Part shown: piece by piece, positions 43,257 to 46,305 of the stretch | Numbering within the stretch: position 1 is the first letter of the stretch | Layout: every line of letters starts with the position of its first letter | NCBI GenBank assembly: GCA_016286665.1 | Contig: JAEETX010000004.1 | Span: forward strand, 2,718 to 66,717 | Direction of reading: 5' to 3' | DNA from: Oscillospiraceae bacterium | GTDB taxonomy: Bacteria; Bacillota; Clostridia; Oscillospirales; Oscillospiraceae | DNA length: 64,000 nt | Notes under the pieces: model-generated | The model's input: only the letters and a program-made list of their open reading frames with translations | The model's database searches: none | Told to the model about the DNA's origin: nothing | Made by a program: the position numbers and the translations under genes

Positions 43257-44075
43257 TTATCCCTCCCCTTCCAGCCACAGGCCGCTTGAAGTTTCGATAA
43301 CGCTGGCGGTGACCTTGGTCTGCCGCAGTCGATTGATTTCCCGCTCCAGCTCCGCTGCGGAATCCATTCCGTTGTCATAAGCGGAGCGCATGGAACTCAG
43401 CGTCGCTCCCTGAACGCCCATGGCGCTTTTCAGCAGAAGATAGTACACCTGCGCACGAAGGCAGAATTCCGCCAGTCCCTCGCAGACCGTCGCAGGATCG
43501 GGAAGCCAGAGAATATCCTGTGCTGCTCCCGAACCTTCGCCGGGAAGCAGCTCCAGACATTTGGGCTTCTGACTCATGGCGTTCACCGCTTCGCTGTAAA
43601 CGAAAAGAACGCGGTTCACCCTGCCGGATAGATACAGTGAAAGGATGCGCTCCGTCAGCGCTTCCGCTTCCGCATATTCCGGCACGTCGGAAATCGGGAA
43701 TTCTTCCAGAACGGGTATTCCGCGCTCTTTCAGATGGGCGGCAGCTTTGTTGCCGCCGGTGATGAACCAGGTTTCTGCGGAAATGGAAAGCGAATGAAAA
43801 TAGGAGAACAGTTCATTATGATAGCTACCGCATAAACCGCGGTTGCCGGAGAGCAGCACCGCGAGCGTCCGTCCCTCTGCGCCGGGGATCACGGGGATCG
43901 CCGCCCCGGAAGCCTCCATCAATTCCCTGCAGCCCTGCGCATAGGGCGAAAAAGCATATACTGCGCTGTTCAGCCGCGCGAGCTTTGCGGAGGATACGCT
44001 GCGCATGGCTCCGGCCAGCTGACAGATGGTCTGAACGCCGCGGAGACGTTTCCGGAGGTCAACCAAGGTCGCCAT
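43257..44075 (-). CDS. atpG: F1 ATP synthase gamma subunit
   Basis: N-terminus [26 protein letters not shown] and C-terminus [15 protein letters not shown]. The start lies inside the upstream gene (17-nt overlap), 8 nt after AGGAGG. Confidence 0.9.
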
Positions 44076-46305
44076 AGCTGTTGTCCTCCTTCCGGAACCG
44101 GGTCAGCGCGTCCTTAACGCTGGAAATCAAAGCCGCATCCATTTTCTTGCCGCTTTTCAGCTTCTGCACCAGTTCCGGCTCCCTTCCCTCCATGTGGAAA
44201 TAGAGCCTGTCCTCGAATTCCTCCATGTTTTCAGGATCAACGTCGTCAGCGAAGCCCTCGGAGACGGCAAAGAGCAGCAGCGCCTGTTTCCAGTCCTCCA
44301 GCGGCGCGTACCGCCGCTGCCGGAGGGCGGCCATCATCCGCTCGCCGGAATTCAGGACCTTCCGCGTATCGTCGTCAAGATCGGAGCCGAACTGGGCGAA
44401 GGTGGAGAGCTCCCGGTATTGGGCAAGCTCCATACGCAGCCTGGAGGAAACCTGCTTCATGAGAGGCGTCTGCGCGGCGGAGCCCACACGGGAGACGGAA
44501 AGCCCCACGTTGATAGCGGGCCGCTGGCCGGAATTGAAAAGGTCTGTCTCCAGGAAGATCTGACCGTCCGTGATGGAGATCACGTTGGTGGGGATATAGG
44601 CGGAGATATCGCCCATTTGCGTCTCTATGACGGGCAGGGCGGTCACGCTGCCGCCGCCCGCTTCCTCCGACAGCCTGGCGGCACGCTCCAGAAGCCGTGA
44701 ATGGAGATAGAACACGTCGCCGGGATAGGCTTCCCGTCCGGAGGGGCGGTGGAGCAGCAGGGACAACTCACGGTAAGCCACGGCGTGCTTGGACAGATCG
44801 TCGTAAATGATCAGGCAGTCCCGCCCGGAATAGAGGAAATACTCGCTCATGGCCGCGCCGGCAAAGGGCGCGATATACTGCAGGGAAGCGGAACTGGAGG
44901 CCGGGGCGCTGACGATCGTGGTGTAGGACATGGCACCGTATTTTACCAGCTTATCCCGGAATTCCGCCACGGAGGTCTCCTTCTGACCGATCGCTACATA
45001 GATACAGGCTACGTTTTTCCCCCGCTGATTGATGATGGCGTCCAGCAGCAGCGCGGTTTTCCCGGTCTGACGGTCGCCGATGATCAGCTCGCGCTGTCCC
45101 CTGCCGATGGGCACCAGCGCGTCCACCGCCTTGACGCCGGTATGGAGCGGAACGGATATGGATTTCCGGTCCGGGATGCCCGGCGCGGGGTTTTCTATGG
45201 GCCGTTTCAGTTCGGTGCGGATGCGGCCTTTTCCGTCGATGGCGCGCCCCAGGGGGTCCACCACACGACCAAGCAGAGCTTCGCCCACCGGTACGCTGGC
45301 GATCCGCCCGACGCGGCGGACACGGCTGCCGCTTTCGATCATTTCATAGCTGCCGAAGACCACGCAGCCGATGCGCTGGGGATCGATCTCCAGGATCATG
45401 CCCCGCTCGCCGCAATCGAACTCCACCACCTCGCCGTACATGATATCTGCAAGGCCGTCCAGCCAGCAGATGCCGTCGGAAACGCTGATGACCCGGCCCA
45501 GCTGGAAGGTGTCCAGCTTCGGCTGCGCCTCCTCTATGCCCTCCATCAGGTCCTGCAGGATGCTTTCCTTGTCCAGCAGCTTGTCGATCGGCCGTTTCGT
45601 CAGGTCCTTTTCCAGATGATAGAGCCGGTTTTCCACCGTCATATCATACACGGTATCACCGATGCGCAGACGAATGCCGCCCATGAGGTCCGGATCGACC
45701 TTGACCCAGTAGGAGGGCTTGCCGCCGACTTCCCGCAGGAGTGCTGTGGTACGTTTTCCGATCAGCTCGACCAGATCATCCGGGAGCGGGAACGCGGAGG
45801 TAAGGGTGACATAAAGCACATCGTGATGCATCAGGTAGCACATATCGCCGGGCGTGATGGAGATATTCTCCAGAATGCGCTCGGCGAACAGCGGTTCCAG
45901 CGCGCGGATGCGTGACAACTGCGGTTCCTGCGTCAAATGGGCCCCAAGCTCCAGCACGAGGGACCTGACCGCCTGATCTCTGGCGTTGCCCATGGCTTCG
46001 CGCTGCAGGTCCTCCAGCTCCTGTCGGTGCAGCTCCTCCGCCTGCTGTTCTTCCTCTGAGATGGAGCGGCGCAGTATCTCCATATCCGCATCCGCTATCG
46101 GTCCTTCAAGCGTATCCTCCGGCTGCGGTTCATCGATTTCGGAAGACGGCAAAACCGCAGCGGCCTCCAGAGCCTCTGCTTCGTCCAATTCGCGGCCTAT
46201 GCGTTCCCGTCGTTCGGCAAAACGCCTGAGGACCGTTTTCCTTCCTACGATCCAAAGCCCCACAGCAAGGATGAGGAAGTTGATCAAGGCATAAATAAGC
46301 TGCAT
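44059..46305 (-). CDS. atpA: F-type ATP synthase fusion protein: b-like membrane anchor and stalk, delta/OSCP-like domain, and complete alpha subunit
   Basis: One continuous 748-codon ORF. Residues 1-100 are b-like (LINFLILAVGLWIVGRKTVLRRFAERRERIGRELDEAEA). Residues ~105-235 are delta-like (VDPDLMGGIRLRIGDTVYDMTVENRL). Residues ~250-748 are alpha (GDRQTGKT, ALPVIETQ, SITDGQIFL). Confidence 0.85.
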   Translation of the reverse strand: MQLIYALINFLILAVGLWIVGRKTVLRRFAERRERIGRELDEAEALEAAAVLPSSEIDEPQPEDTLEGPIADADMEILRRSISEEEQQAEELHRQELEDLQREAMGNARDQAVRSLVLELGAHLTQEPQLSRIRALEPLFAERILENISITPGDMCYLMHHDVLYVTLTSAFPLPDDLVELIGKRTTALLREVGGKPSYWVKVDPDLMGGIRLRIGDTVYDMTVENRLYHLEKDLTKRPIDKLLDKESILQDLMEGIEEAQPKLDTFQLGRVISVSDGICWLDGLADIMYGEVVEFDCGERGMILEIDPQRIGCVVFGSYEMIESGSRVRRVGRIASVPVGEALLGRVVDPLGRAIDGKGRIRTELKRPIENPAPGIPDRKSISVPLHTGVKAVDALVPIGRGQRELIIGDRQTGKTALLLDAIINQRGKNVACIYVAIGQKETSVAEFRDKLVKYGAMSYTTIVSAPASSSASLQYIAPFAGAAMSEYFLYSGRDCLIIYDDLSKHAVAYRELSLLLHRPSGREAYPGDVFYLHSRLLERAARLSEEAGGGSVTALPVIETQMGDISAYIPTNVISITDGQIFLETDLFNSGQRPAINVGLSVSRVGSAAQTPLMKQVSSRLRMELAQYRELSTFAQFGSDLDDDTRKVLNSGERMMAALRQRRYAPLEDWKQALLLFAVSEGFADDVDPENMEEFEDRLYFHMEGREPELVQKLKSGKKMDAALISSVKDALTRFRKEDNSYGDLG

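Follow-up and report, generated by a model that had tools for sequence, protein, structure and literature searches.

The number of a-subunits in an F-type ATP synthase sets its H+/ATP ratio, a basic bioenergetic constant, and to our knowledge one a-subunit was assumed in every F-type enzyme until 2025. Here we describe a fused ATP synthase gene from an Oscillospiraceae bacterium (GenBank assembly GCA_016286665.1, contig JAEETX010000004.1, positions 2,718 to 66,717 of the forward strand; this stretch of 64,000 nucleotides is called the window) and compare it with related enzymes. The closest described system is the engineered Bacillus PS3 δΔN-α FoF1 (PDB entry 9JC1; Ueno et al., Nat Commun 2025; PMC12229609). 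According to its authors, delta's N-terminal domain, lying on the pseudo-three-fold axis of F1, limits the enzyme to one peripheral stalk; in their design delta residues 2-104 were deleted and delta residues 105-178 were fused to the alpha N-terminus. In the resulting enzyme as many as three b2 stalks were present, every one of them together with an a-subunit, and it showed an H+/ATP ratio of 5.8 vs 3.0 and a halved threshold proton-motive force (pmf) (PMC12229609). A natural δΔN-α fusion was reported in Acidaminococcus fermentans (D2RLW6), along with G4Q3K6 and A0A1I2C5T3 (PMC12229609, Discussion and Supplementary Fig. 9), and Ueno et al. predict that such natural fusions are "highly likely" to be multi-stalk enzymes, a prediction still unverified (PMC12229609). 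Few natural candidates were named, none of them tested experimentally (PMC12229609).

On the minus strand of the window, one open reading frame (ORF) runs without interruption through 44059..46305 and encodes a protein of 748 amino acids (aa) with a calculated mass of 83.3 kDa, exactly where an earlier reading of the sequence (the original prediction) had claimed a single 748-codon frame. The protein joins a b-type stalk, delta's C-terminal domain and a complete alpha subunit. Its parts are given below, with structural segments taken from an AlphaFold2 (AF2) model of the fusion.

44059..46305, minus strand: the whole fused ORF, b-δΔN-α, 748 aa
46153..46305, minus strand: residues 1-51, b-type transmembrane (TM) helix and membrane-proximal helix (Pfam ATP-synt_B; AF2 helix 2-51)
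46096..46152, minus strand: residues 52-70, Pro/Glu-rich segment, predicted to be disordered (predicted local distance difference test, pLDDT, <50; indel census)
45934..46095, minus strand: residues 71-124, long upper stalk helix, b-derived (AF2 helix 71-124; TIGR03321)
45595..45933, minus strand: residues 125-237, delta C-terminal domain, δΔN (OSCP, TIGR01145, AF2)
45502..45594, minus strand: residues 238-268, connector including the alpha N-terminal helix 246-259 (alignments, AF2)
44059..45501, minus strand: residues 269-748 and stop codon, complete alpha (TIGR00962, 715 bits; PF02874, PF00006, PF00306)
Residues 238-271, from the delta domain to the alpha barrel, minus strand: peptides including RPIDK, LLDK, ESILQDLMEGIEEAQPK and LDTFQLGR

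The alpha part consists of the beta-barrel, nucleotide-binding and C-terminal domains, with the barrel running from residue 265 onward in the AF2 model. TIGR00962 (atpA) aligns by model positions 6-500 to residues 248-740 with 715.3 bits, above its cut-off of 484.45, and this match bears out the full-length alpha with Walker A motif GDRQTGKT that had been predicted. An OSCP-type signature, VDPDLMGGIRLRIGDTVYDMTVENRL, is also present as predicted. Pfam OSCP (PF00213) matches residues 159/160-235 by model positions 98/99-172 of 172 only, TIGR01145 (delta) is matched at positions 100-172 only, and solved delta/OSCP chains align by their C-terminal domain only (e.g. residues 113-176 of Bacillus PS3 delta). 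The AF2 model has a compact α/β domain at ~129-237 (pLDDT >90) and a helix at 246-259 that corresponds to the alpha N-terminal helix; a delta N-terminal helical bundle, which would lie after the stalk helix and ahead of the α/β domain, is missing from it. Because the OSCP match is confined to model positions 98/99-172 and the AF2 model lacks the helical bundle, the protein is read as b-δΔN-α, and the delta-like domain of the original prediction holds as a C-terminal domain but not as a whole delta. At the N-terminus, Pfam ATP-synt_B (PF00430) matches residues 3-49 with 22.5 bits, under its 28-bit cut-off; the same model aligns by positions 4-126 to the homolog P0081 with 41 bits, above the cut-off, and precomputed PF00430 matches are found on most homologs.

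A PDB sequence search with the N-terminal part of the protein found chain I of 9jc1 ("delta subunit, alpha subunit"), and in a Foldseek search against the PDB the top three matches were the three fused chains of 9JC1, with ~575 aligned columns vs ~470-510 for ordinary alphas. Aligned to 9jc1_I, the protein stays colinear across the delta C-terminal domain, the connector and the beginning of alpha, and only one gap, of one residue, is needed. Both proteins are without the delta N-terminal domain, both carry the delta C-terminal domain in frame with the alpha N-terminus, and their connectors are equal in length within one residue; the engineered construct was used with an epsilon without its C-terminal domain, and the window epsilon is short too. 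The engineered chain has no b part (b is a separate homodimer) and contains an artificial GGSGGS linker, whereas the window protein adds a fused b-type TM and stalk helix and is accompanied by a distinct b′ gene. In the window the delta N-terminal domain is absent, the delta C-terminus is joined in frame to alpha and the operon has no separate delta gene, the features of the δΔN-α class, within which multi-stalk assembly and a raised H+/ATP ratio have been demonstrated for the engineered PS3 enzyme only.

D2RLW6, G4Q3K6 and A0A1I2C5T3 are likewise natural in-frame fusions of a truncated delta to alpha, and by their published description, the basis of this comparison, they are δΔN-α proteins without mention of b. 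The original prediction knew of no b-delta fusion extended to alpha. That claim does not hold for the delta-alpha part, for which 9JC1 and natural cases exist, but it does hold for the triple fusion, of which no earlier description was found in literature searches. The b-δΔN-α protein is a new form, with a fused b helix and a separate b′, of a kind of fusion recognised only in 2025.

Two other types of delta-alpha fusion were also seen. The 594-aa protein P0182 (L082, 3954-5738; L083, 1888-3672), from Christensenellaceae-like metagenome-assembled genomes (MAGs), is a δΔN-α fusion without a b part, encoded in an operon of the order a-c-b(170 aa)-fusion-γ-β-ε with an unusually long c subunit of 125 aa. 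The 676-aa protein P0192 (L086, 6001-8031; L087, 4189-6219) joins a nearly full-length delta (OSCP model positions 19-172), with a short N-terminal region of ~90 aa, to alpha; its operon reads I-a-c-b(167)-fusion-γ-β-ε(144), without an internal start or Shine-Dalgarno (SD) sequence at the junction. An enzyme built from this chain would have to fit three delta N-terminal regions on one F1.

In a scan of one genome per species, relatives of the window fusion were found in at least 567 species-representative genomes, and the continuity of the frame is given here for the 80 best loci. The complete continuous frame is present in 77 of the 80 loci, at 733-766 aa after start trimming, and the comparison of related genomes proposed in the original prediction thus returned the same frame. 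In two loci (L016 and L068) the frame leaves the end of the contig and is uninterrupted to that point. Locus L047, from an Acutalibacteraceae MAG, has one in-frame stop at ~6850-6856 within the alpha beta-barrel (ADIM*GEVVEF, where Tyr is expected), which is a sequencing error or a pseudogene and lies away from the delta/alpha boundary. Four loci that had appeared broken (L013, L015, L021 and L043) were rejected as such; their frames are continuous and the apparent breaks were artefacts of a motif filter. All 80 loci match across residues 1-300 except L026, where the sequence is cut off at residue 78. Their sources are MAGs from the gut or rumen of sheep, goat, buffalo, deer, horse, rabbit and human; the MAGs bear the labels Oscillospiraceae, Acutalibacteraceae, Candidatus Fimenecus, Clostridia or Eubacteriales.

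Searches with residues 1-300 returned dozens of junction-spanning metagenomic proteins at 29-83% identity, and the continuous frame is kept from 79% down to ~27% identity. An exhaustive profile search of 1.84 billion representatives gave 481 matching representatives at E ≤ 1e-10, full-length proteins of 724-753 aa among them; with a distant full-length query, 120 of 120 among the matches listed were proteins of 735-764 aa with b, OSCP and alpha domains. The frame therefore recurs in hundreds of independently assembled genomes and metagenomes, which excludes a sequencing or assembly artefact; nothing was found in favour of a stop codon or frameshift lost between atpH and atpA, and its probability is negligible. 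The triple fusion is judged to be genuine and selectively maintained.

Database entries for these genes are often shorter than the frame. In L001 (4493-6706) NCBI calls a 518-aa "alpha" inside a continuous 737-aa frame, and in L001, L023, L088, L089 and L090 only a "F0F1 ATP synthase subunit alpha" of ~480-520 aa is annotated, from an internal codon, with the b-δ part left unannotated. Within one 90% cluster the lengths on record are 746, 635 and 589 aa. Annotation thus conceals the fusion systematically across databases.

Structural constraint acts on the b and delta parts. In an indel census of 73 full-length proteins from 73 species, the Pro/Glu-rich segment (14-33 aa over region 51-72) accounts for all the indels within the first ~270 residues. 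The TM helix is 22 aa long, the proximal b helix 28, the upper helix 53 and the delta C-terminal domain 112 aa, and the connector, variable in sequence, is fixed at 30-31 aa; the spacing from GDTVYD in delta to SDGIC in alpha is the same in 72 loci, at exactly 59 residues. Within the TM helix, Y5, N9, L13 and A14 are invariant in 16 diverse homologs and lie on one helical face (i, i+4, i+8, i+9), which implies a specific helix partner. The N-terminal module is not a decaying remnant. The distant homologs P0052, P0058 and P0081 have an uninterrupted Ala/Gln/Glu-rich helix where the subclade of the window has its Pro/Glu-rich break.

Fusing alpha to delta and a stalk helix creates a stoichiometry problem, as the original prediction had pointed out and as we agree, since F1 needs three alphas but only one delta and one stalk. 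One way out suggested there was internal initiation at Met254. The codon (ATG 45546-45544, with AGGA 4 nucleotides upstream) is present in the window, but initiation there is unsupported, as only 14% of the 72 loci aligned have ATG at this position. Each codon from 186 to 299 was scored in these 72 loci for how often it is a start codon and for anti-SD duplex energy, and neither a conserved start codon in the connector (the best is Met at 241, in 38%) nor an anti-SD hybridisation peak before any connector position was found among them. The best combination of start and SD in the connector of each locus has a median of -3.0 kcal/mol vs -3.2 in 957 gene-internal background windows (p = 0.52). 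By comparison, a clear SD precedes the true start of atpG, where the median is -6.6 kcal/mol. No internal start signal was found at the junctions of the other fusion types (L082 and L086).

Five proteins that looked like free-standing alphas (P0064, P0066, P0067, P0070 and P0072) were rejected as truncated calls or contig-cut copies of the fused frame, and no second alpha-like ORF was found within ±6 kb in 81 loci. On sequence evidence, all alpha appears to be made as the fused chain. Since the operon encodes neither a further alpha nor a further delta and internal starts are not conserved, each of the three alphas would carry its own delta C-terminal domain and membrane helix.

With the delta N-terminal domain lost, the crown of F1 could be three-fold symmetric and could accept up to three peripheral stalks. 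Each stalk would be a heterodimer of the fused b helix and one copy of the separately encoded b′ (atpF), one strand being covalently continuous with alpha, and each could hold an a-subunit against the c-ring. More than one a-subunit would raise the H+/ATP ratio in proportion, as was measured for the engineered analogue, and a raised ratio would allow ATP synthesis at unusually low pmf in these strictly anaerobic gut and rumen bacteria. On balance we lean towards an F-ATP synthase that is naturally multi-stalk and that probably has several a-subunits and an elevated H+/ATP ratio. Among the three resolutions offered by the original prediction (internal initiation, proteolytic processing, or three tethered stalks), the last appears best supported by comparison with the engineered enzyme. 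It is a more tentative proposal, possible but short of probable, that the enzymes of Oscillospiraceae, Acutalibacteraceae and Christensenellales have three covalently anchored stalks (fused b plus b′) and three a-subunits. If so, H+/ATP would be as large as the c-subunit count (~10 or more) and exceed that of any known rotary ATPase, strict anaerobes could make ATP from very small ion gradients, and such an enzyme would be widespread in gut and rumen microbiomes, concealed by annotation.

Several points weigh against a multi-stalk enzyme. The engineered enzyme averaged about two stalks and three-stalk particles were rare (PMC12229609). P0192 keeps most of the delta N-terminal domain yet is fused, so fusion to alpha is by itself no proof of multiple stalks. 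The survival of an intact 83-kDa chain in the cell is something we infer from the reading frame. In the subclade of the window the disordered Pro/Glu-rich segment breaks the fused b helix, which is odd for a torque-bearing stalk; the break could be a flexible tether or a protease-accessible site. Finally, the search for a second alpha spans ±6 kb per gene, and an atpA could lie elsewhere in the genomes.

These points lead to the alternatives. Three fused chains might assemble with one working stalk, a single a-subunit and an ordinary H+/ATP ratio, leaving two idle membrane tethers, and here the disordered, length-variable residues 52-70 are relevant, a flexible segment that could make idle tethers tolerable, as is the finding that most engineered particles had fewer than three stalks (PMC12229609). 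Such an arrangement seems rather unlikely, however, in view of the conservation of one face of the TM helix, which implies a specific partner for every copy, of the a-subunit kept by each observed stalk of the engineered enzyme (PMC12229609), and of the uninterrupted b-type helix in the distant P0081 (ATP-synt_B model 4-126).

A conventional single stalk would result if proteolysis in the connector or non-canonical internal initiation released free alpha and one in three chains stayed fused. This would restore the canonical 3:1 stoichiometry, and the connector is variable in sequence, with partly conserved prolines (P239 in 83% and P262 in 72% of loci) that could mark a processing site. It is nonetheless an improbable solution: conserved starts and SD sequences are absent, the SD-plus-start score equals background and the Met254 ATG is confined to a minority of loci; no strictly conserved cleavage motif was seen in the connector; the connector is fixed in length and colinear with an engineered one that stays intact; and the chain is missing the delta N-terminal domain, through which a conventional enzyme has to bind free alphas. 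A second, unfused atpA elsewhere in the genome could instead supply two of the three alphas, given that the DNA inspected comprised 64 kb of the window genome and ±6 kb of the others. This is very improbable, as none of the 81 loci has a second alpha nearby and all alpha-only proteins found with high identity to the N-terminus of this alpha proved to be truncated calls or contig-cut fused frames. Multiple stalks on a crown of three fused chains remain the reading that we prefer.

The fusion was also compared with other known systems. The mycobacterial b-δ protein (7JG5 chain d, 445 aa) likewise has a b-type membrane helix upstream of delta and a separate b′, but it retains the full delta including the N-terminal domain, its alpha is unfused and the enzyme is single-stalked. 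In 7JG5 chain d the alignable part is confined to the final ~50 residues, and membership of the mycobacterial type (PRK13428) was rejected because delta is not full length; the model scores 23 bits vs a cut-off of 328, only its last ~55 positions align, and alpha shares the ORF. In N-ATPases, the long b subunit (TIGR03321; PMC11738941) is colinear with fusion residues 6-235 (model positions 11-245 of 246) and has a b helix followed by a delta C-terminal-like domain without the delta N-terminal domain, but it is not fused to alpha. Membership of the N-ATPases was rejected too; the window operon reads I-B-E-F-(fusion)-G-D-C vs atpD-C-Q-R-B-E-F-A-G, AtpQ and AtpR are absent, and the scores are below cut-off for TIGR03324 (595 <750.5), TIGR03305 (581 <752) and TIGR03321 (28.7 <224.7). 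The window alpha and beta are of the standard F-type. A true N-ATPase long b was seen in L084 (6001-6861; P0152, 286 aa), with a delta C-terminal-like domain but no delta N-terminal domain and colinear with residues 6-235, in an operon ordered β-ε-AtpQ-AtpR-a-c-b-α-γ. If the symmetry argument of Ueno et al. is applied to them, N-ATPases too could be considered as possible multi-stalk enzymes.

The F1Fo of Chloroflexus aurantiacus has two stalks and two a-subunits by way of a shortened, dimerising delta N-terminal domain (PMC12002316). Here too a naturally occurring F-type enzyme has several stalks and a-subunits, tied to a change in the delta N-terminal domain, but there is no gene fusion and the stalks number two, not three. 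V-/A-type ATPases likewise place several peripheral stalks (two or three EG) round one catalytic head, but the proteins of those stalks lack homology in this sense and are not embedded in the membrane, and with a single a-subunit the extra stalks leave the ion/ATP ratio unchanged.

The δΔN-α design, with the b helix fused too, is carried by an entire clade of Clostridia from gut and rumen, a very large one with at least 567 species representatives, and many natural sequences are now on hand with which the natural existence of multi-stalk, high-ratio ATP synthases can be tested. The matter bears on the energy conservation of fermentative anaerobes near the thermodynamic limit.

The remaining genes of the operon surround the fusion on the minus strand in the order given by the original prediction (atpI-like, atpB, atpE, atpF, fusion, atpG, atpD, atpC), and, again as predicted, the operon has no separate atpH; none lies within ±6 kb either.

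47667..47984, minus strand: atpI-like small hydrophobic membrane ORF, 105 aa (conserved position)
46998..47660, minus strand: atpB, a subunit, 220 aa (PF00119; NCBIfam subunit A models)
46737..46970, minus strand: atpE, c subunit, 77 aa (PF00137)
46306..46728, minus strand: atpF, separate b′, 140 aa (PF00430 and PRK08476 B′)
43257..44075, minus strand: atpG, gamma (PF00231); its start overlaps the end of the fusion by 17 nucleotides
41854..43278, minus strand: atpD, beta (TIGR01039, 768 bits)
41558..41854, minus strand: atpC, short epsilon, 98 aa (PF02823 only)

At 46308-46303 the sequence TGAATG holds the stop of atpF directly followed by the start codon of the fusion, in agreement with the original prediction. 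A separate b′ of 138-143 aa is found in 79 of 81 loci, its stop mostly 0-7 nucleotides from the fusion start. The atpI-like ORF has no Pfam or NCBIfam match, and a homolog lies at the same position in 71 of the 81 loci. Epsilon keeps the N-terminal beta-sandwich and is without the C-terminal helical inhibitory domain, with NCBIfam alignments ending at about model positions 86-89; epsilons of the clade measure 88-100 aa, with the homologous gene seen in 71 loci.

The carboxylate motif of the c subunit is MEALTIY in 72 of 78 loci. The Na+ site of the Ilyobacter tartaricus c subunit includes Ser66 and Thr67, and the window c subunit has Ala and Leu at these positions. This suggests H+ as the coupling ion. 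In helix 1 of the c subunit, the bulky residues T, F, A and A replace the GxGxGxG packing motif and might affect the size of the c-ring.

Elsewhere in the window and unrelated to the ATP synthase, 58533-60014 (minus strand) encodes a 493-aa protein with an eCIS core domain; adjoining it, 60336-63304 (plus strand) encodes two tandem proteins of ~490-500 aa that contain MutS domain V only.

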